A program made the position numbers and the translations under genes. 64,000 nt of DNA from Raillietiella orientalis. Taxonomy: Eukaryota. Under the pieces are notes generated by a model. That model saw only the letters and a program-made list of their open reading frames with translations. It had not been told where the DNA came from and searched no databases. Shown here piece by piece: positions 3,001 to 63,168 of the stretch. Every line of letters begins with the position of its first letter. The stretch's first letter is position 1. The stretch covers positions 434,001 to 498,000 of the forward strand of contig JAYWIR010000031.1 in assembly GCA_036172245.1 (NCBI GenBank), in the 5' to 3' direction.

Positions 3001-5277
3001 TAATCTAAAAGAGCCAACCAAGCTGAAGAATATTTGACAAAAACTCCTACCAAGAATGAAAGTGATTTGACCGCAGTGGAAGATATGGAGAGGTCTTTTG
3101 AGTCTGACCAAACCACACCACCACGAGACACCATTTGGAGCCATCTGGGAAACAATTAAAAAGCTCTTTTAAATTGAAAAATCAAACATTTCCATCTTCC
3201 CACAAGCTGATTTCTGCAAGGCATCTTTCTGTTTCAATTTTATCACTCAATTCTGTATACTTCCCGGGTAATTTCAAATCCTGAATGCAGATCCGTTCTG
3301 CTTGCTATATTAACGTCGGATGGAGGACAGGCAATCGTAAATTAATAGAACCAATGGGGACTTCTGGCAATTTTTCATTCTCTACCGCCCTGCTAAAAGT
3401 ACTTATAGTATGACCACATTCCTCCCTCCTTTCCTGTCGGGTTCTCAAATTATCAAAAAGAACAGCTGTAGACGTCTTACTTGTGTACATTTTGAACTTG
3501 TTCAGGTGAATTTTCTGCTTTAAGTAGACTGAACAGGTCATGGCTGAAACAACATTAGAAGGAAAGCATCTTTACACATTCATTCCTGAAAATCAAATAG
3601 AATTCCTTCCCGTAAAAGTATAAGCAAATTAAATCTAAAGAGCATTGCAGATTACCCGAATTATTCGAACTTTCATTAGAATATTTTCAACCATTTAAGT
3701 TAACTAATCCTCATATTTTAATAATACAATTCTTATCTTATTTTTATCTTGATGGACATAACGCCGAATTCTTGTACTCATGAATTTGGTTATTTAACTG
3801 TATTAATAAAAAATTAACTACATTTGTCCTTAGTTTTACAGTTCATTTTTCTGCTCTCAAAGGACAAAGAAGAAATTATCGAGAACGTTTTTACTTTGCT
3901 CTGCTGAAAGATAGAACCAAACTTATCTGGATGTTATTTTCTTAGGGTAAATCAAATTATCTCGGTCTTTTGCTTCATATCTAGATATCCATAAAAGGCA
4001 AGATTAACAAATGAGCATCCTTAATTAGGCAAATACCTCAAGTTACTACAAGTACATGGATAAAGGTTAAAAAAATAACTCGCAATCACAGTGATGATAG
4101 CTTCAAAGCAAATTGTTTCCTTTTCCCAATCCTACTTTGCATTTGTTTCTTCATATTCCGCTGTTCTAAAAGGGTTTTCACTGTTCCGTAAGAATGATAA
4201 CATCTAATGATTCCAATAGCATTGCAATTAAGAACCCTTCGTAACATGATTTTCAAGGAGCATTGTATACAAATTCCTTCCACTCTTTTCTCGGACATTT
4301 CAAAATCACAAAAAAATTGTGTAGCTGTCTAAGATCTTCTGCAGTCAGGTTTGTTTTTTTCTCAATTACAAATGTCAAGGCAACTATCATATTTTCCCAG
4401 AAGTTTTAGAAATAACTTTGGTTAAAGAGAACAAAATAAAATCCCCACTGGATCGATTCACATCATCGGCATTTGGCAAATTCGGTTATCTCAAAAAATT
4501 AGAAACCCAAACATGAGATTCTAATTTTAATTGCCTTACTTATCATTAATAGCCTAAGTGCAAGTGACGAAAGACAGATTTTTTATCCCCATGCAAGGAT
4601 GTACAATCATTTCATCATTACAAAAATCTCATGGCCGTAAACTATTGGTATTTCTGATACTGTTTCAAACAATAAATGCCACCATTTCAGGACTCCATGA
4701 TTACTACAATATTCTGAAATATGCTGAAGCAAAGTGCAACAGAATATGAAATCAGACCTCCAATCAGTATTATCAAACTAGACACAGAAGATTGATCTCA
4801 GTGTTATTTCAATGTGTGAAACCATCTGATAAGGAGAAGAATACATCAAACATTTCAATATGAAATATGTTGTGATTGATCAAATTGATAAAATCCTGGA
4901 ACTTTGATTAAGATAAGAACTATTTGATTAAGACTCATAAAAAATAAAGAAATAAAAGTGGTGCACTACAATTTTATTTGATTTTATTCTAACTTATCAG
5001 CATCCCTTTCTTTTCATCCCTCGACATCGACACCTCATTAAACACTGGTGGGCAGTCATTAAGCCCTTTCTAGAAAGAACTTCGTGCACACACTCTTATG
5101 TCATGCATTTCATGGCCAGTAAGAAAGGAAGGAGCAAACTGGTTGCATTATCATATCTATGAATGAATGTTTCAGTATGTTTAACTTCAGACGTGTTAAT
5201 CCATCTACAGCAAGCAATATATCCTGAACAGTTTCATCTCCTTCCATCTATAACAATTTACTCCATTACCCGGAACC

Positions 5278-5290
5278 CAATAAACTCTAT
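5278..5290. repeat. Target-site duplication, copy at the element 3' end (CAATAAACTCTAT)
   Basis: Exact direct repeat of 10778-10790; the flanking bases differ on both sides. Confidence 0.9.
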
Positions 5291-5419
5291 TTTCTCCAGG
5301 TCCCACAAGGGGTGGGGTAAATTCATTTTCCTATAAAAGCATTCACTCTACAATCACATTCATACAAATGTAAGCACTTTTTTCCCACTTTCACTTTTGC
5401 TGAAGTTCACTGCTCACCT

Positions 5420-6798
5420 TTACCTTGGATTCGCTTGGGCTTGGGTACTTTCTTCGATCCTTCTCAGGATGTGTCGGTAGTTCCATGCTTGCATTTGTCC
5501 GCAGTTCCGGATTCCAATCTCCTTCTGGATGAGCCTTTTCAGGATTTCCAGTGGAGATATGGTCGTCCTCGTGGTTTTCATCTTCCACCACCGCACAAGG
5601 ATGGCGGTGATGAAAAGGGCGATGGTCACTCTTACCATGGGATTGTAGCGGAGAACCGTTCCAGTTCCCTGGGACATCCCTGCCAGAACGTCCATGGTCG
5701 AGGCATGGGCAGCCCGATGACCCTTTTCAGGGTTGTCCACTCGGCTTGCAATGTGGGGCAGGTCAGGACGTGGCGTCTTGAGTCTATTCCTCCACATGCT
5801 CTGCAGATCTCATCTTCTCTTTTTCCCATGAAGAGCTTCATTCTGGTGCCACACAGGAGTCCCCCATGGAAGAACATGAAGAGGTTGTCCTGCGTGTCTA
5901 GTGGCAAGTCACTCCTCCAGAGCACCGTCCCAATCGCTAGTGGATTGAATCCACTACTAGCGTAGCGGTCGGCAGCATCTTGGAGGGCACTGATGCCTGT
6001 AGACTCCGTGATTAGCTGGCGTATGTTCCTCTTCGTCACTCTGGACCACGCGAGGTTGTGGTGATTCTTCCAGACTTCGCGGGTCTTCAGTGTGAAGCTG
6101 CCAGATATTCTTGCAACGTAACGAAGTACCTGGAAATGATGCAGGTATCGTTGTCGCTTCCATGATTCTATCTCTTTCAAAGTAACTCCGGACCGCTGGC
6201 GTATCCAGCTCCTCGTGTCATCCCTCACGGGGAGCATCCAAGGGATTACCAGGATGGATTCCTCCTGCCAGAGTTCTTTGCTCTTCGGGATGATCTTCAG
6301 TCCTTCCTTCTTGACCAACTGTTGTTTCCGTCGCTATGTTGGGTCGATGGTTGACCATTTGCCGACTCTGCCGACGAGCGCAGTCATCAGGCCCCTCGAG
6401 TTGTTCAACAACAACGAGTATGCCCTGTGCGCTGCGTACGGCCAGTCGTCCCAGTTGGAAGACATCTCCAGGATTTGTCGCACGTCCATGAAGCTCACGG
6501 CGTGTGCAGGCGACTTCATCCCGGTTCCTCCTTCCTCCTTAGGACGACAGAGTGGCTTAAGGCGTACTCTTGGCTGATTCCTCTGCAGCTTTTCCACTTC
6601 TCGCTTGGTGTCTGTAGACATTTTGCAGAAGGTCGCATCTTCGGAAGGAGTACTTCATTCCAAAGATTGGCCCTCTGCTTCTGCCCAAGTCCGAGCGGGT
6701 GTACTTCGCTCCCTCTTCTGCTGTTTTCCCCAGGATTTCCTTCCACAATAATTGGATGACGAAGCATCGCCAATGTGGATACCCAGGTACTTGATTTG
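5420..6798 (-). pseudogene. ORF2 C-terminal remainder (RT thumb region and zinc-binding tail), broken by stops and frameshifts
   Basis: QIKYLGIHIG continues in frame right after the TAA at 6799-6801. LCRPKEEGGTG lies in 6334..6621 and CRACGGIDSRRHVLTCPTLQAEW in 5632..6318. The last segment ends at the stop at 5420. Confidence 0.88.
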
Positions 6799-8895
6799 TT
6801 ACACCGTACGGAATCCTTCCCTCATGCGTGTTGAGAGGTCCAGAATTCCGACGGGCAAAAGCTGGCTTTTTTGGGCATTGATCTTGAGGCCCAGTCCTTT
6901 TTCCATGAGCTCCACCACATGCAGAAACCCTCGCTGATCTCTCTCCCCTTTAAGAAAGAAGAAGAGATCGTCTGCGTAGGCCAGATGGGTGAGCTTTTGC
7001 TTGTCCAAAGTAATTCCTCGGAGGTACCCAGTTCTCTCGATGAACGATGAGAGGGTCTCCATGTAGATGACAAACAGCATTGGACTTAGCGCGTCGCCCT
7101 GGCGGACTCCGCGTTCCATCCTAATGGCTGCTGTCGCTTCTCCATTGATCTTGATGCGGAACTGTTGTTCTTGCAGTATCATCCTGACGAAGTTGCTGAA
7201 GTATTCCGGGAGGCCCAGTCTTCCTAGAATCTTCAGCAGCATCACATGGTCTACCGTATCGAAGGCTTTCTCCATGTCAGTGAAACCCAGCACCAAGTTC
7301 TCGCCGATATATCGGCTAAGAACTATGGTAGCTTGGGCACACTTGACATTGTCCAACATGTGTGACCTGGGCACCGCACACGTCTGGACGGGAGAGATCA
7401 GCCGCGGCATGACCTTGCCTAAGCGGTTGGCCCAGATCTTCGCTAACCACTTAGCATCGGAGTTCAGGATCGAGATTGGCCTCCATTGGGTGATCTGGGT
7501 TAGGTCACCTCCTTTCGGCAGCAATCTCATCCGACTCTCGTAGAAGGATGCGGATAGTCTTCCTTCTTCTTTGATGCATAGTGTCAGCTGGTGGAACAGT
7601 CGCCGGTAGGCATGCAGATACCTCTGATAGTGTGTGATGGGAATACTATCAGGACCTGCTGCCACATCCTTGCGAAGTTCCTGGAACGCAGCTTTCACTT
7701 CTTCCTCGGAGATATCTTCTTCCAGCATCATCTTGCTCTTGTCGTCTATTCTTTTTTCGAGATGCCTCAGAAGACTTTGCTGGTAGGCTTCACACAGATG
7801 TCTGCGTCGGAATTGTTCCGCACAATGCCTATGGAAGGCTTCTGCGATGTCCTCCGACGTGTGTCTTGTCTGATCTGTGTACTGGATGCTGAAGATGTCT
7901 GTCGCCAGATTCTTCTTCTCCAGTACGCCAACTGCACTCTTTACGTTCTTGAAGACGTATCGACTCTCATACTGTTGCCAGTACTTAGAGAGGGAGCGAT
8001 CTTGGATGTTGAGCTCGCGGTACGCCTCCTGCCTCAGCCTCTTGTCGCCAAACTGCATGTTGCAGAATAGATGGATTCGATGCTTTAGGCTATCCCAGTC
8101 GGCGACTCTGCTGATGGTTGTTTGCAGAATCGCCTCCATCAGATCTTGATGGTGCGGATGCGTTTCAAACCATGCGGGCATGCTGATGATCGCCGCCCTT
8201 GGTGCCTTCTTCCGTCGAGGATTTTCAGTCCTCAGGGTGAACCTCATCAACGGGTGGTCGGACACTGAGTGGAGCGTGTCGCGAAAACCGAGGACTCGGT
8301 TCCCTATGTCGGAGCTGTAGAGGACGTGATCGATCGGCTTGTGGCTCGCTGTTAGCCACAGCAGTCCGAACTCGTCGGATAGCCGCCGATACGCCTCTCT
8401 GCCTCTGACGTCCCGGGAATAGATGACTTCATCCAGGATGTTGAAATCCCCAACGATGATGACGATGTCCTTTGCAGCAACTTTCTGCCGAAGGGCTTCA
8501 TGAAGCACCTCCGCGCACTTCTGCTTAAGTTGGTGAGGCCCGTAAACGTTCACCAGGAAGAGAGGAACGTTCGCGGACCAGGACAATCGTGAGACGATGA
8601 TTCTTCCAGGTACGGGACAGAAGACTTCCAGGATGGTGGCGGCAAGCTCGTTCTTGATGGCGATTGCCACCCCCATCATGTACCTCTGCCCCTCGCTGGT
8701 TAACAGTTGGACGTTCAATCGTCTTTCCAACTCCAGGATGATCTGCTGCCCCATCTCGTGGGTTTCTTGCAGGCACACGATGTCGTAGTGCTTGATGTGC
8801 CGCACTATTCTTCTTCTTCGCACCGGGTCTTGAATTCCATTAACATTCCAGGAGGCGATGTTCAGTCTCCTGGCGGTCGACAAGGACGAGGCCAT
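6799..8895 (-). CDS. ORF2 N-terminal open segment: APE-type endonuclease plus reverse transcriptase (698 aa)
   Basis: EN motifs SWNVNG, LQETH, NVYGP, GDFN, IDH and SDH. RT motifs GPDS, WRPISILNSDAK, DMEKAFDTV, GVRQGDALSPMLF and AYADDL (YADD at 6967-6978). Confidence 0.96.
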   Translation of the reverse strand: MASSLSTARRLNIASWNVNGIQDPVRRRRIVRHIKHYDIVCLQETHEMGQQIILELERRLNVQLLTSEGQRYMMGVAIAIKNELAATILEVFCPVPGRIIVSRLSWSANVPLFLVNVYGPHQLKQKCAEVLHEALRQKVAAKDIVIIVGDFNILDEVIYSRDVRGREAYRRLSDEFGLLWLTASHKPIDHVLYSSDIGNRVLGFRDTLHSVSDHPLMRFTLRTENPRRKKAPRAAIISMPAWFETHPHHQDLMEAILQTTISRVADWDSLKHRIHLFCNMQFGDKRLRQEAYRELNIQDRSLSKYWQQYESRYVFKNVKSAVGVLEKKNLATDIFSIQYTDQTRHTSEDIAEAFHRHCAEQFRRRHLCEAYQQSLLRHLEKRIDDKSKMMLEEDISEEEVKAAFQELRKDVAAGPDSIPITHYQRYLHAYRRLFHQLTLCIKEEGRLSASFYESRMRLLPKGGDLTQITQWRPISILNSDAKWLAKIWANRLGKVMPRLISPVQTCAVPRSHMLDNVKCAQATIVLSRYIGENLVLGFTDMEKAFDTVDHVMLLKILGRLGLPEYFSNFVRMILQEQQFRIKINGEATAAIRMERGVRQGDALSPMLFVIYMETLSSFIERTGYLRGITLDKQKLTHLAYADDLFFFLKGERDQRGFLHVVELMEKGLGLKINAQKSQLLPVGILDLSTRMREGFRTV

Positions 8896-8904
8896 AGAAG
8901 GGTT

Positions 8905-10495
8905 TTATTTTTTGGCCTTTCGTAGCTTCTTTTGGCGGGGAGACCTTTGCAGTCTTCCCGTCGCAGAAGCTGTCTTTTCGCTTCCGGCATCGCTTTCCGT
9001 GCCAGTTGCGTCAGTGTATTCTTGTTCTTCCGCGGTACGTTCGATCTTGGCAACTACTCTGTGCGGTAGGGTCTCCAGACTGACCTTCGCACAGTATGCT
9101 GCCTTGACCTCGAAAAGCTGGGCTTCAAGCTCTTCGCTCTCCCCTCCATCTACCAGATTGTTGATGTGCTCTTGTGTCTCGCAGATACCAGTCAGGAGTT
9201 GCTCCTGTTGTACCGCCTTCGGCCCCTGGCTGATCGCCTCCGTTAGCTTCACCACCTGTTCGGTGAGCTGTTCTGCCTCCTGAGAAGCCGGAAAGGCTTC
9301 GCTCACCTCCATAGATTCGCCTTCTGGCACGCCAACCTGCTCTACGGCCTGCGAGGAGGATTCCTGCTCCCTAACGAGCATCCTCCTCTTGCCGCCTTTC
9401 CCTACTGTTGTGAAGCCGTCCTCCGAAACGGGAGCGGCCTCCTTCGCCTTCCTCTGCTTGATCGGCCTTTGAGGTTTTATAACCTCTGCCAACACCCTCT
9501 CCCTCACGGGGGATTGCCCGCGCACGTCCTATAGCTTGCATACTCAGGGCAGCACCACTTCCCATGCCCCGGCTGCTTACAAAAGGAGCAGACTTCGGGC
9601 ATGTTGCAGCCCCGCACCTGATGGCCCTGCTTCCCACAGCGGAAGCACCTGGACCGGGGGCACACGCTCTGTCGATGGCCAAAGTTTTTGAAGCCATTGC
9701 AGAACACTGGCTACAGCCTGTATCGCACGAAGACCTCCTGCGAATCCCCGTCGATATGCACGGTCCCAGGAATCTGGCCTCCTCCTTGATCTTCATTTTG
9801 GCCATCGCATTTCCGGAAAAGATTTTTCCGGAGATGTTGTGGAAATTGATTTCCAGCACCTCCCCGTATTGCATCAAATATGTCCACACAACCTTTTGTG
9901 TGGTCATTGGACCAATGCCACTTAAAAAGATGGTGGTGTACTGCATTTCGCCGATCCCACACACCATCTTTCCCTGTATGTTGATTCCCTGTTCGATCAG
10001 GGCCTCCCTAATGTTTTCACAGTCGATGTAAACTGTGAATCCCATTGTGCTGGGTATGATCGCCTGCAGGCGGTCGAAATCCACTTGTTGTTTGTACAAC
10101 GCCAGGTACACCTCCCTGACGTTGTGCATCCTTATCAAGCCCGTCTTGAACGTGACCGGCTTCACGTTCGGGCCTAACTGCACTATCGGCTCTTCCACGT
10201 TCCTAATCGACCCGGACTCGGGCTTTCCAAACTTCTGCGACTGGGTGGTTGCCGTCCCAGCCGTCACCGCCGCATATGAAAACGCCGGTGGCCGCCCCAT
10301 GGTCGCAGCCACCGAGCAATATGGCGTCGCGTCACTAGCAACGGGCGGGCCTACGGGCCCCCCCGTCGCTCCGGCGACCGCCGTCGCCGGGGACGCCGCC
10401 GCCGCCGCCGTCGCGCCAGAACAACATCCTTGCCCTACCTCCAAGGGCTGCGGATTCTCCGGCCTCGCCGCTCCTGCCGTCGCTCCATGCTGCAT
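8905..10495 (-). pseudogene. Tx1-type ORF1 (gag-like nucleic-acid-binding protein), disrupted
   Basis: First ATG is at 10495. An RRM-like stretch (YTTIFLSGIG...LMQYGEVLEI) is followed by a frameshift near 9780 into GQIPGTVHIDG...VRYRL. An in-frame TAG at 9711-9713 precedes the knuckles CNGFKNFGHRQSVC, CFRCGKQGHQVRGC and CSFCKQPGHGKWCC. A second frameshift near 9520 leads into an acidic/basic tail ending at 8905. Confidence 0.88.
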
Positions 10496-10632
10496 CCTGG
10501 CGGCGGGTTGCTGCACGACCGCCGGAGAGGGTCGCGAGTCCTCCACCTTGGACTCCCTGTCACTGCTGCTGCTGCTGCAGGCGGTGGGGGTAGTCCTGGG
10601 CTGCGCACTCACTGTCTTTTCCAATATTCACT

Positions 10633-10772
10633 TGCCCTCTCGGGGCACACAAAAATTGCCGTGGCAGTGGTTTTACGCACTGCCTTGGCGGGGTATTGGG
10701 TAAAGTTTTCAACTAGCAATAATCACGGCTCAGTCACCTTCCCCGCCTATGATAATGCACGTGCTCAAGGTT
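10633..10772 (-). ncRNA. U4: U4 spliceosomal snRNA-like sequence (140 nt), retrocopied as the 5' end of the LINE
   Basis: The minus strand reads AACCTTGAGCACGTGCATTATCATAGGCGGGGAAGGTGACTGAGCCGTGATTATTGCTAGTTGAAAACTTTACCCAATACCCCGCC...GGCAATTTTTGTGTGCCCCGAGAGGGCA. The core GATTATTGCTAGTTGAAAACTTTACCCAATACCCCGCC matches metazoan U4 as I recall it. The 5' stem-loop with K-turn, the 3' stem GGCAGTG/CACTGCC, the Sm site AATTTTTG (10650-10657) and the terminal hairpin TGCCC/GGGCA are all present. Confidence 0.93.
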
Positions 10773-10777
10773 TTCCT

Positions 10778-10790
10778 CAATAAACTCTAT
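10778..10790. repeat. Target-site duplication, copy at the element 5' end (CAATAAACTCTAT)
   Basis: Exact direct repeat of 5278-5290. Confidence 0.9.
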
Positions 10791-12909
10791 GTATTCTTTT
10801 TTAAGATCCGGCAACTCCATGGAAACCTTGAAAATTCGCTTTAATTTGCACGTTTTAAGTGAAATTAGGGAACCGATTAGAAAAAGACATAGGAAAAGAA
10901 AGGAAATCAGTAACCATAACTACAATGATATCGAGACTACCATGGGAGAAAGCATGCCCTCAAGTTTCAGTTTACACCATTGGAAAAGCAATGCAGACCA
11001 AGGAAATCAGACATGACCTCTCTACAGTTGGAGCCACGGTATTTCAATGTGACCACTTTGAAGGCAGAATTCCTATCTGCAGTTATAATTAAGCGCAGAA
11101 CTTAGCTGCAGCCTTCATCTGTCGAGCTCAACTTCCGAAATATGCTGCAGTGGTCACCTTTCAACTTATGCAGGTATCATCTGCTCATCGGAAAGGGCTC
11201 TCTGGTTCTAGAGCATAATGAAACACAGCAGAATAGATCTTAGTCGGTCTTCCTCTGGAGCTGAACGTCAGTGTAGATTTCTGCTGTTTACCGCCAGTTA
11301 TGTGCTTTTTCTTATTCATCGCTAAGATCGCTGTTTTTCGTTCCAGGCTAGTGCTACGTGCTGGAGTCAAACTCTTCGATGCCCACTTCCTTTTAAACAC
11401 ACCGGACAGTTTTCCTGGGATCCTTACAAGTCAAACTTTTAATAACTTTTGGAAAGTCTTCAGATTCAGACTTCACCCTATTGAAAGTGGTGTTTTCCTC
11501 TTGCTTTCCTGTGCCATGCCTTTTAATTTCACCTTGAATGTTACTGTCCATTCTTATTTTTATTTTTATACTGTGCATTCTCCTCTCAATTCATCTAGTT
11601 GCGCAGGATGCCTGTTTCTCCACGAGAAAGCAGCCCAGAAATGCCCATTCCAGATACCTGATTTATGATGAGATGAAAGGTAGGAAGAAAGCAGGACTCC
11701 TTTCCCGAAAGGGGATCCAGTCCAAGCTTATTGTTTGCTGCTTTGACAAACTCCCTCACGCTGCTAAGCTACTAAGCTGCTGTAGGCGGATGTGGACCGC
11801 GGAGCATGATGGCTGTGTGCGGCCGTGCAAAGCAGCATCACGAGAACGGTTGTGGTGCGATCGTAGCTGCTGCGTATCCATACGCTTGGACGGAATTACA
11901 CATTGTACACATTCCATGTCGCTTCGACTCCTGCCGAGCAAGTGCCCAAACACTCAAAAAAAGGAAAAGGAAAAACACACGAAAGCAAAGGGATTCTTCC
12001 CAATTCGCTTTGTTCTTTCACTTTTCCAGCGCTGAAACGTTTGCAGAAACGGCAACCTGAGAAACTCTGCAGCAGCATACGCCTTGGACTCCGACGTCAG
12101 ACGTACTCGCAAAGTGGAGAACCGAAAGTCCAACCGAATGCAATGTTTCGGCCACTCATCTTGGAAACGGTGGAGGAGAGAGTGGGCTGCCGGGGAGAAA
12201 CGGATGCTCGAAATTCTTAACGATAATGATGACAATAATAATAGTAAAAATAAAATTTGCCATTCCAATATACTGTGACTCGGCTTGGAGTTGGATCGCG
12301 ATGCCGATGGTCATCAGAAGGTGATCTGCGACCAACGTCATCCATGCTGGTTTGTCTCGCTTCAGAAAGACTTGCGCGGAAGAAAGCAGTTCCGTGATTT
12401 TCGTTAAGCACATGCACGCGAACGTGTTTCCTAGTGCGCCAACACGAACGACACATGCGAACAACAGATACGGGACTTCGGACGATGCGTTGAGAAAGGT
12501 TGCGTTTGGTGCGGGGACGAGTCAGATCGCATTGTCTGTACAGTGAACACCACCCCCAAGAGCCGTCCATAGAAGGAAGAGGCGGGAAAACACATGGGGG
12601 CGGAGTATTCGAATCGCAAACCGACCCTCACTCTCTGCACGAGCGGCATGGGATCTTTTCATCCATCCATCGATCAATTAAGTCGCATGATCCCTTTTTC
12701 CCTCGGGTAATTTTCAAGAAGCTCATGAAAGTCTGGAAGAAAAGGCGCCCCAAAACTGCGCACGGACGATTTTTTCGAATTCAGCGCGGGTGGGAGCATC
12801 GACGGAAAAGCGCGCTGAGTACTCAGGAATCATCGTTCCCCTAGAAGCTCAGGAAGCTCTTTAACGCTGATCCACAGGTGTGCATGTCGTGACTCTCTTC
12901 AAGTCAGGG

Positions 12910-32500: not shown

Positions 32501-35049
32501 AGGGTGCAAGGTGGCTGCCGCAATTCATTGTCCAACAACAGATGAAGCGAGCAGGTAGGAGGATATGAAAGGTGGTCTACTCCCGTTCTTTCAATCCAGC
32601 GGCACCTCTAAAAATCTCCCCGAAATAAGAAAAGTAAGGTAACTTTTTAAAGTGGTACTCTTGAACAGGAGTACGTGATTTTTGGGAATAGGAGGATGCC
32701 GCCACGGTGACATGGTCTCAAACACCGAGGTGTCATCTGGTTATTGAGAGCAGGCTAACAGCGGAAGGAGGAGCAGGGAGACACACCACACAAGTGGGAT
32801 TGTTTCGGATAAACAAGCCGTGATCGACGCGGCATCGGATGAAATGATCAGAACGAAATCCGAGATGCACACCCACTCATAAGAACCGGAGGAAGTCAGG
32901 AGGAGGAACAGAGGAGTAAGAGGAAAGGCGGAGGAGGAAGGGAAGAGGAGGAGCTGCTAATAGCTGCACAGGACCGACGGAATCTTTCAGACCGGGGAAC
33001 ATTCCATGTAGGGAACTTTCGACTCTCCCTGCATGGATCCGCAAGGGAAAAAGACAAACTCGGCCAACGAGCTATGCCTGGGAACACTGCAGATCACGAG
33101 TATCCGGATAAGCAGCATCAGAAGCTGATTGAGATAACATAAGAATGCATGTTCAGATGAGATTGGTGCGTCGCCATATTTCAGATACTTTTCCTCGATG
33201 GTAACCTGTTTCGACAGCCCTCGAGGGTCCGAAACGTCCCAGAGACCACGTGTTGTCACGAAAGTCCGCGATTCATGCGAATTATCAGCTCTGTTTCGAA
33301 AGTTCAAGATTCCATCGAGGTTTGGGAATGGTGCTTCGAGTCAGCTGCTCGGAATGCCGCAATGCCTATTGGACGTGAGAAATTCTGTAGGAGCGAATTC
33401 ATGTTCGAAAGTATCGCTGACAATCCTTTCAGATTTTCAGGCACGCAGAGGACCCGAGAATCTGAGAAAGAATTCGAATGCTTCAGAGGCCGAAAAGCAT
33501 GAAGCAACCGTCCTTTCTGAGGACCTGTGGTAGATGGAAAAGAGTTGCCCTAAGATTCATGATGGGGTGACTAAGGAGAGGTACGCGAAGAGGTTTGAAA
33601 ATGATTGGAATAATAATACATGGAGCGAGTCTCGAAAGGTTGATGAGGATGGAAACTAAGGCAATGGAAATCTTGACTGAGGGTGCACTTTGTGCGTGGA
33701 GGCTGCTGTTAGTAAGTTTTTGATAGCAATTTGACTGGATGAAGATAGGTTTGCATATTGATTGTGAGAGTCATCTAGGATGTGAAATCATAAATAAAGT
33801 GATTCTGCTTCAAAGTTCTTGCTAACGTCATGGAGGAATTCCTCCTTATGGATGGGAGTTTCGAAAATCATCGTCGCAAGTAATCGCGCGGAACCCTCGA
33901 GAAGTCATCCCAAAGCATGAGCTGCTCTTTTGCTTTGGCCAACAGATGCTGGTAGAGGAGAAGGCACAGAAATGAATGCACATTCATGTGCAAGGTTCTA
34001 GCCTGCTCTTGACTCTTCCACGTTCTCTGAAGCAGATTTCTCCAACACAATCACCAGGTTTCATAGGATGCAGATCAGGGGAACTGAAGATTTACTGTCT
34101 TTTCTCAACCTGGCTTCCAGTACTATTCGAATGCTGTGACCATCGGACTCACGTCGCAGTCCTCCTGTCTGCTTCTGTTTGCTGCTGGTCTCCTTCCTCC
34201 ATACCACGTCTCATACCAAGCTTCCAGTCTTTCCCCACTCAGTAATGAATTCCTGTGGTTTCTACTGTGGATCCTGTTCCAAGAAACGAATCTGTGGATT
34301 TCCCCGTTTTTCCCGTTGTGCTTCTCGACCACCGAGGAGTAACCACCCATGTTCAAGACAGTTGGATGGCGTCAGGTTTGAGAGATGGGAAGGGACGCAC
34401 TGGTGTGCCTCCCCATCGATGTCGTGTCAGTAGGTGCTGCTCGTTGATGGCTCGATCCTCGAAGCTCCAAGAGATTCAAGAAGAACGCCTCGTAGGATCG
34501 ACTGGATTCTCGGAAATCAGCAGGTGGAGTCAAGTGTGCTTTTTTGCATGGATGCTGCCACTAACTGCTGCAATGGCACTCATTTTTCTTCCCATCCTGC
34601 CGTTCTTCATGAAAGGAACAAAGCTTCCATGTGTGCACCTCACACGGACATTCCTCTCTTTAAAAGCTCCTTTCCCTGATCATGTCAGGTGCTTTGCAAG
34701 TTTGTCAGGCGGGGTCAAAGAGCCAGTATCTGGGGGAAGGTGAGCTAGACGAGTTGAAGGAGAGAGAGGGAAGAAGAAAGTAGTCATAGTAGTGTCAGAG
34801 GCAGGAGGGGAAAGAAGATGAGGAAGGAGGAAGAAGGGAGAAGAAGGAAGAGGAGGAAGAAGGGAAGAGGAGGAGGCGGAGGAAACGAAAAGAGAGGAAC
34901 TTCAAAATTGTGCTCGTCATTTCCTCCATCTCTCTGCATTTCAAAAGGAAACGAACGAACACACACAAAAAAAAGAAAAGATGGAAAGAGTTGAGGAAGA
35001 AACGAGAGGGTTCGTTGCACGATCAGCAGAACAAAGAGACCAAGAATGA

Positions 35050-62924: not shown

Positions 62925-63168
62925 AAAGAAGGAGGAAGGAAGGAGAATGAGGACGGAAGTATGAAAAGAAAGGGAGGAGGTGGAAGGCAGGAGAATGAGG
63001 AGAGGATGGGAGGAGGAGGAAGGAGGAGGACAATAGGGAAGGAAGGAGGAGGAGAATGGAAAAGAAAGGAGGAGGAGGAGGAAGGGAGGAAGAAAGGAGA
63101 ATGGAGAATGAAGGAGGAAAAGGAAGGGAAGAAGAGAGTGGAAGTGGAGGAAGAAGGGAAGGAAAAGC
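62925..63168. repeat. Polypurine (GGA/GAA-rich) low-complexity tract
   Basis: About 240 bp almost exclusively A/G on the plus strand. Similar tracts occur at ~34760-34900, ~48745-48915, ~55550-55655 and (pyrimidine strand) ~51345-51450. Confidence 0.85.

Follow-up and report, generated by a model that had tools for sequence, protein, structure and literature searches.

We analysed a 64,000-nucleotide stretch of DNA from Raillietiella orientalis (assembly GCA_036172245.1, contig JAYWIR010000031.1, positions 434,001 to 498,000 of the forward strand), referred to below as the window; coordinates are those of the window. On its minus strand, between positions 10790 and 5278, lies a long interspersed nuclear element (LINE) of L1 type which carries a complete U4 small nuclear RNA (snRNA) sequence at its 5′ end, the two being enclosed by a single target-site duplication (TSD). 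Read in the sense of the element, the order is a 13-nt repeat, the five nucleotides AGGAA, U4, a leader, open reading frame (ORF) 1, ORF2, a 3′ untranslated region (UTR) and the 13-nt repeat again. This is the arrangement given in the initial annotation, with U4 measuring 139 nt, the leader 138 nt, and the ORF1 start codon at 10495. The features are as follows.

10778..10790, minus strand: 5′ copy of the TSD, atagagtttattg in the element sense, identical to 5278-5290.
10773..10777, minus strand: five additional nucleotides, AGGAA, separating the TSD from the first position of U4, read from the sequence; the U4 alignment starts at 10772.
10634..10772, minus strand: complete U4 snRNA, 139 nt, matching RF00015.
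10496..10633, minus strand: leader, 138 nt.
9374..10495, minus strand: N-terminal part of ORF1, frame 1, ATG at 10495; no Pfam family found.
9507..9710, minus strand: CCHC zinc-knuckle segment of ORF1, frame 0, matching PF00098.
8908..9528, minus strand: 207-codon open stretch, frame 2, ending just before the ORF2 ATG, from the frame map.
5632..8895, minus strand: ORF2, with an APE endonuclease, a reverse transcriptase (RT) and a C-terminal part containing Cys and His residues, from Pfam and tblastn of homologs.
5291..5631, minus strand: 3′ UTR, 341 nt, ending in GGAGAAA, from the sequence.
5278..5290, minus strand: 3′ copy of the TSD, identical to 10778-10790.

The sequence at the head of the element is an authentic U4. 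When the whole window was compared with Rfam, U4 was the sole match at or above the gathering threshold (RF00015, 10634-10772, minus strand). The score was 91.9 bits against a gathering score of 46, with an E-value of 2.6e-19, and the match was untruncated, covering positions 1-138 of the 138 in the model. What had been described from inspection as a U4-like sequence was thus recognized by the covariance model over its whole length. As a baseline, 20 of 20 metagenome loci with U4 genes matched the same model, at 85.6-129.8 bits. The score of the head therefore falls among the lower values for real U4 genes, as is seen for U4 genes of divergent lineages. In the covariance-model alignment all the expected parts can be followed: the 5′ stem-loop, the tandem G.A kink-turn, the central U6-pairing box, the Sm site and the 3′ stem-loop. 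The 5′ stem-loop is paired in the structure line, and GA...GA flanks a short capped helix on both sides. The Sm site, AATTTTTG, is followed by the 3′ stem-loop GCCCCGAGAGGGC; these two parts were compared beside 32 metagenome U4 sequences. The 5′ end, AACCTTGAGCACGTGC, which would pair with U6 in stem II, departs over its first 16 nucleotides from the CTTTGCGCAG core. Of 100 distinct 5′ parts of metagenome U4 compared, most have this core, and a few divergent metagenome loci (L018, L021, L062 and L080) deviate from it too. The departure may reflect either decay or the normal U4 of the host. The 5′ end likewise differs from the vertebrate-like U4 of metagenome loci L113 and L114.

The TSD reads CAATAAACTCTAT on the plus strand and is 13 bp long, with both copies identical, as the initial annotation had it. 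Among the 20 largest of 33 direct-repeat families in the region 5000-11100, no other pair has 100% identity, and about 2.7e-5 shared 13-mers would be expected between two 40-nt windows of the local composition. The flank has a GC content of about 0.35, which rises to about 0.5 within the element. Neither U4 alone nor the LINE alone is bounded by a repeat longer than the TSD. As the TSD starts five nucleotides upstream of U4, the DNA beyond it, where a functional U4 gene would have its snRNA-type promoter (PSE), is target DNA. U4 thus lies 5′ of the LINE, in the same sense and inside the same TSD, which is the arrangement expected of an snRNA/LINE chimera. Because a single TSD encloses both parts, U4 and the LINE were very probably inserted as one unit, in one event of target-primed reverse transcription (TPRT), and the earlier proposal of a single retrotransposition unit is to that extent supported.

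The LINE itself has L1-type coding capacity. ORF2 contains an APE domain (PF03372, E 4.1e-19, amino acids 14-214) and an RT domain (PF00078, E 4.5e-29, amino acids 460-680), and its best match among solved proteins is human L1 ORF2p (E 6.2e-46), ahead of R2 proteins (3.4e-24). ORF1, upstream, contains a CCHC zinc knuckle (PF00098, zf-CCHC) with an E-value of 8.2e-5 and a score of 23 bits against a cut-off of 20.8. Judged on these protein sequences, an ORF2 with APE and RT domains, a closest solved match to human L1 ORF2p and a CCHC-type ORF1 upstream place the element in the L1 superfamily; the narrower Tx1 label of the initial annotation is putative. The 207-codon stretch ahead of ORF2 may be an ORF in its own right or else the C-terminal end of ORF1; its only Pfam match, to RRP7, was below threshold. 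The element ends in CCTGGAGAAA right before the TSD and has no poly(A) tail, as is the case for many non-mammalian members of the L1 superfamily.

The copy was initially described as full length. That holds for its extent, which runs from end to end, but not for its coding state. ORF2 forms a single frame from 8895 to 5635 which is interrupted by in-frame stops at 6799-6801, 6655-6657 and 6334-6336. ORF1 is broken over three frames, with the N-terminal part, the CCHC knuckles and the C-terminal stretch each in a different one, so that at least two frameshifts are needed to join them. From its reading frames the copy is complete in extent but mutationally dead, and nothing suggests function. 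An Rfam search of 5200-10900 with E-values up to 1 found no self-cleaving ribozyme or other RNA family; only U4 was above threshold, and three sub-threshold matches to snoRNA and miRNA families look like chance.

The joint between U4 and the LINE would lie at or near the start of the leader. The sequence directly after the U4 3′ stem-loop begins AAGTGAAT. The first 28 nucleotides of the leader are A/G-rich (C 4%), and the remainder is 71% G+C. The motif AGTGAA occurs five times in the 5.5-kb element: at the leader start (10627-10632), three times in the last 120 nucleotides of the 3′ UTR (5331-5411) and once in ORF2. Its background across the window is 0.29 per kb. AGTGAA is possibly a UTR motif common to both ends of the element. 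As it is shared by the leader start and the LINE 3′ UTR, it suggests that LINE sequence takes over where U4 stops or immediately beyond, which is what a jump from end to end would predict. The last position of the Rfam model falls at 10634, and the bases that follow share AGTGAA(T) with the LINE 3′ UTR yet also hold a motif resembling an snRNA 3′ box. The longer form AGTGAAT was counted eight times in the whole window on both strands, two of these being in the leader start and the 3′ UTR. The leader also contains a (CAG)5 microsatellite at 10563-10577, and the ORF1 frame stays open upstream of its ATG up to 10627.

A search of public sequencing runs listed a single run with sequence in common with the window, and no RNA run; this run (X1), from a relative, shared 7% of sampled words with the window. 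X1 contigs were aligned at a likeness threshold of 80%, and the joints and differences described here are taken from a summary listing. The stretch was matched by 115 contigs, 81 of them less than 90% alike, mostly on the LINE. Depth was 20-90 over ORF2, about 4-11 over ORF1, 1.9 in the leader bin (10350-10583) and 19.5 in the U4 bin. By these alignments X1 is a relative carrying many diverged, mostly 5′-truncated copies of the LINE. The U4 region was represented by two contigs with a summed depth of 28.2, both of which carried a difference at 10662; this was the sole difference in the U4 region among the 40 best-supported of 742 X1 differences. LINE bodies in X1, in contrast, differ by 10-20% from the copy in the window. 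Because the X1 U4 is far closer to the head than the X1 LINE bodies are to the LINE in the window, the head seems to have been copied recently from the conserved U4 of the host lineage, and does not look like an old, co-evolving part of the element.

One X1 contig joins the two sequences in another way. In the sense of the element it contains the LINE 3′ end (through 5289), then 20 other letters, then U4 from about nucleotide 42; the joint runs from 10731 to 5289, with a depth of 11.8 and a shorter side of 41 letters. The 20 letters were absent from the window when up to 3 mismatches were allowed. Chance adjacency seems unlikely, and the contig, read as sequence, hints at a second and different juxtaposition, and so at more than one joining of U4 and this LINE. 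A double template jump, from the LINE to U4 and then to a LINE 3′ end, would explain it simply; a 5′-truncated daughter of a U4-headed element, or re-use of a target site, could also account for it. As the same contig matches the LINE 3′ end through 5289, the TSD in the window may truly consist of 11 bp with a 2-nt tail belonging to the element. Among the 15 joints listed for X1, with 8 of 133 contig pieces displayed, none corresponded to an empty site (5277 to 10791). A further X1 contig skips 459 nucleotides (joint 8896 to 9356, side 35), comprising most of the acidic stretch from the CCHC knuckles to ORF2, and some relatives may lack this segment.

Other copies and relatives of the element were sought in the window and in sequence collections. 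Self-comparison of the window by blastn gave the self-match only, and thus no second copy of the LINE or of a U4 fragment; outside 5200-10900 the window likewise gave no match to ORF1, ORF2 or 96 homologs by tblastn, nor to U4 by blastn. In protein databases the best relatives of ORF2 had 23-31% identity among the 48 matches listed in each of two length classes. These were mostly unnamed, and the named ones came from a nematode, plants and Mucoromycota. The protein matches listed included no named Tx1 reference. ESM Atlas returned generic APE and RT clusters only. Close relatives of the LINE were not found in metagenome contigs (48 pattern matches, none confirmed), in prokaryote-genome contigs (40, none confirmed) or in viral contigs (1, not confirmed), and an exact 26-mer across the junction of U4 and leader had no match in the prokaryote-genome contigs.

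We also surveyed U4 loci for adjacent LINE sequence. A 19-mer from the U4 core was matched in metagenome contigs, giving 122 stretches, and 119 loci (325,018 bases) were read; the contigs were mostly just 1-5 kb long. No L1-like ORF was found beside U4 in these loci, either by tblastn with the ORFs of the element (no match at E <= 1e-3) or with the 96 L1-like homologs (no match at 1e-5). Among the metagenome loci, L011, L027 and L045 proved to be dense clusters of small-RNA genes on contigs of 5-6 kb, containing U1, U2, U4, U5, U3, 5S rRNA and metazoan signal recognition particle (SRP) RNA, with U6 in L045. In L017 and L003 the U4 genes lie within tight arrays of tRNA genes, L017 having 14 tRNA matches, U4 and a partial U6 within 2.2 kb.

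The surroundings of the element were examined over the whole window. Base composition varies strongly along it, GC content climbing from about 0.35 over the initial 4 kb to 0.60-0.65 at 48-64 kb, and the long open frames seen on all six frames of the GC-rich part are probably an effect of composition. In 170 submissions of ORFs lying outside the element (some ORFs counted twice), no Pfam family was found, and no tRNA genes were found in the window. Purine-rich (AGG/AAG) short tandem repeats with periods of 23-42 nucleotides are present at 34825-34884 and 63017-63167.

We tentatively favour the explanation that the locus is a chimeric retrocopy, in which RT, having reached the 5′ end of the LINE RNA, switched to U4 snRNA as template during one TPRT event. 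The LINE endonuclease would have nicked an AT-rich site, and RT would have copied a full-length RNA of the L1-type LINE from its 3′ to its 5′ end, with 10633 as the LINE's own 5′ end. Instead of stopping, the enzyme would have jumped to the 3′ end of U4 snRNA and copied through to the U4 5′ end. About five untemplated nucleotides (AGGAA) would then have been added, and the attachment of the composite cDNA to the target DNA upstream would have left U4 and LINE together within one 13-bp TSD. The U4 reads in the direction of the LINE and spans the Rfam model from its first position to its last, which by analogy matches the orientation and completeness reported for U6/L1 chimeras (PMC11838501).

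Several observations weigh against this explanation. The LINE is full length, while published snRNA/L1 chimeras usually have a 5′-truncated LINE (PMC11838501), and its 5′ end has been placed, by inference, from a single full-length copy, this one. The argument from AGTGAA is weak, as the coincidence would have a probability of about 0.04 by chance given the composition of the stretch itself. The first 28 nucleotides after U4 contain ATTGGAAAAGACAG, which loosely resembles both the snRNA 3′-box consensus and the flank of the L113 U4, so that these A/G-rich nucleotides could be the 3′ flank of a U4 gene. The second junction, in X1, is found in one contig, at the 80% likeness threshold, and in summary form. 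Within the 28-nt stretch, the signals for a jump and for transcriptional read-through are both weak.

Because X1 contains a second, differently arranged junction of U4 and LINE, we keep open a broader proposition, that the LINE lineage is habitually tied to U4, either as a propagating U4-headed subfamily or as a lineage which resides at U4 genes and rides their promoter. We consider this rather unlikely.

Read-through from a U4 gene, with 5′ transduction, is unlikely in its own right. Here a source LINE would have been situated, by chance or by target preference, just downstream of a U4 gene, and a co-transcript initiated at the U4 promoter would have been retrotransposed. Such transcripts would give what is seen at the 5′ end, with U4 starting at position 1 and followed by 28 AT- and purine-rich nucleotides ahead of a GC-rich leader, and 5′ transductions onto near-full-length L1 copies are documented (PMC11838501). 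Two features of the sequence could be taken further in this direction. ATTGGAAAAGACAG lies at about the distance expected of an snRNA 3′ box and resembles GATTGTAAAGACAAAC downstream of the L113 U4; and TATTG, with which the TSD ends, occurs again 7 nucleotides after U4, which could be accounted for if the endonuclease preferred one and the same site. These two arguments are, however, mutually exclusive, since a junction at TATTG|G would halve the 3′-box-like motif, and in 11.9% of random trials the 15 nucleotides before U4 and the 15 after it have a 5-mer in common. AGTGAA ties the 28-nt stretch to the LINE's own 3′ UTR, and the survey of 119 metagenome loci (325 kb) placed no L1-like ORF near U4. 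Some co-transcribed LINEs contain a self-cleaving ribozyme, a family which the search of 5200-10900 (E up to 1) did not find.

Still less probable is a stable U4-headed subfamily, an autonomous analogue of the crocodilian SINEU retroposons, in which a LINE lineage captured U4, kept it for good as its 5′ end and went on propagating. With a full-length LINE behind the U4, the chimera could in principle have been competent for retrotransposition when it was made, and the X1 contig with U4 from about nucleotide 42 beside a LINE 3′ end could be a 5′-truncated daughter. U4 genes, however, have upstream promoters, and a U4 head would therefore bring no promoter with it. The depth of 1.9 in the X1 leader bin, against 19.5 for U4 and 20-90 for ORF2, implies that contigs running from U4 into the leader are rare or absent there. 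The near-identity of the head to the X1 U4, with LINE bodies 10-20% apart, argues for a recent capture, and the 64-kb window holds no second copy.

Two sequential insertions, in which the LINE entered first with its 13-bp TSD and a U4 retrocopy (AGGAA, U4, AAGTGAA) later entered the 5′ TSD copy through renewed use of the endonuclease site and duplicated TATTG, are the least probable reading: a direct repeat of 5 bp, TATTG, does bound the U4 unit, precisely where the 13-bp TSD ends, and the X1 contig with a U4 fragment 20 nucleotides past the LINE 3′ end could represent a mirror image of this at the 3′ TSD copy, but a repeat of at least 5 nucleotides arises by chance in 11.9% of trials and this one does not reach 6, an independent landing within a few bp of the LINE 5′ end is a priori very improbable, and the U4 unit, having no poly(A), no 3′ truncation and no LINE 3′ tail, is unlike the stand-alone snRNA retropseudogene types described in PMC4494074.

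The template jump that we favour has precedents in several systems. Chimeras of L1 with U1-U6 snRNAs and with 5S rRNA have been reported, in which a complete sense-strand snRNA precedes an L1 that is usually truncated; U6/L1 is the commonest of these in mammals, U1-U5 also being known, and additions of 5′ sequence are more frequent on near-full-length L1 copies than on truncated copies (PMC11838501). The present element resembles the mammalian chimeras in having an snRNA 5′ of a LINE, in sense, complete at its 5′ end and within one TSD (PMC11838501; PMC4476161; PMC6789731). It differs in that the mammalian L1 is in most cases strongly 5′-truncated and ends in poly(A), whereas here the LINE is full length and without poly(A). 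Its partner, U4, is an Sm-class snRNA transcribed by RNA polymerase II (Pol II), for which the RtcB ligation route suggested for U6 (PMC6789731) is not an obvious fit. In crocodilians, U1 and U2 have repeatedly been added to the 5′ ends of retroposons mobilized by Tx1-type LINEs, giving rise to the SINEU families, and Kojima noted that these heads bring no promoter (PMC4494074). SINEU and the present element have in common a spliceosomal snRNA as 5′ head, machinery of L1/Tx1 type, an attribution to template switching and the lack of an internal promoter (PMC4494074). SINEU elements, however, are short, non-coding, multi-copy, headed by U1 or U2 and mobilized by Tx1-Mar, while here a single observed copy of a two-ORF LINE has a U4 head. 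Given the L1 chimeras with U1-U6 and the 5′ additions (PMC11838501), and the U1/U2 heads (PMC4494074) already in print, the novelty suggested in the initial annotation was overstated. A literature search of titles and abstract openings found no description of a LINE headed by U4.

Other known systems are less close. L1 5′ transduction and promoter co-option, and SVA-MAST2, likewise place foreign sequence inside a TSD, 5′ of a near-full-length LINE (PMC11838501; PMC4494074); in those cases it comes from protein-coding genes with Pol II mRNA promoters, as exons or flanks, and here the addition is a whole snRNA. Keno and Utopia (U2), Dada-U1 and Dada-U6 are also physically tied to spliceosomal snRNA sequence (PMC4640811; PMC8869645), but these transposons interrupt the snRNA gene at a fixed site, so that its halves flank them, whereas in this case an intact U4 lies inside the TSD at a site that is not U4. 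In the excerpts of PMC4640811 and PMC8869645, the transposons targeting snRNA genes cover U2, U1 and U6, with no U4-targeting family. The MINE elements of Magnaporthe, which combine WEIRD RNA with the MGL LINE, are a non-mammalian example of LINE chimeras with an abundant non-coding RNA, ascribed to single or double template jumps (PMC2104539), although both the partner RNA and the LINE clade are others than here. It therefore appears most likely that the U4-headed LINE copy is a rare case of a known type of event and not a new system, unusual in its combination of U4 with a full-length LINE.

The locus provides a clean and well-bounded case of a LINE RT joining a spliceosomal snRNA to a complete, and not a truncated, element. 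Such joinings are raw material for new LINE 5′ ends and, as is thought, for SINEU-like snRNA-headed retroposons. As a single dead copy, the element is without functional consequence. If the junction were recurrent in the host genome, it would point to an unusually jump-prone RT with a preference for U4, or to a new snRNA-linked transposon strategy; and if the lineage were indeed habitually associated with U4, it would supply the first case of an autonomous LINE headed by a spliceosomal snRNA, or of a transposon directed at U4.

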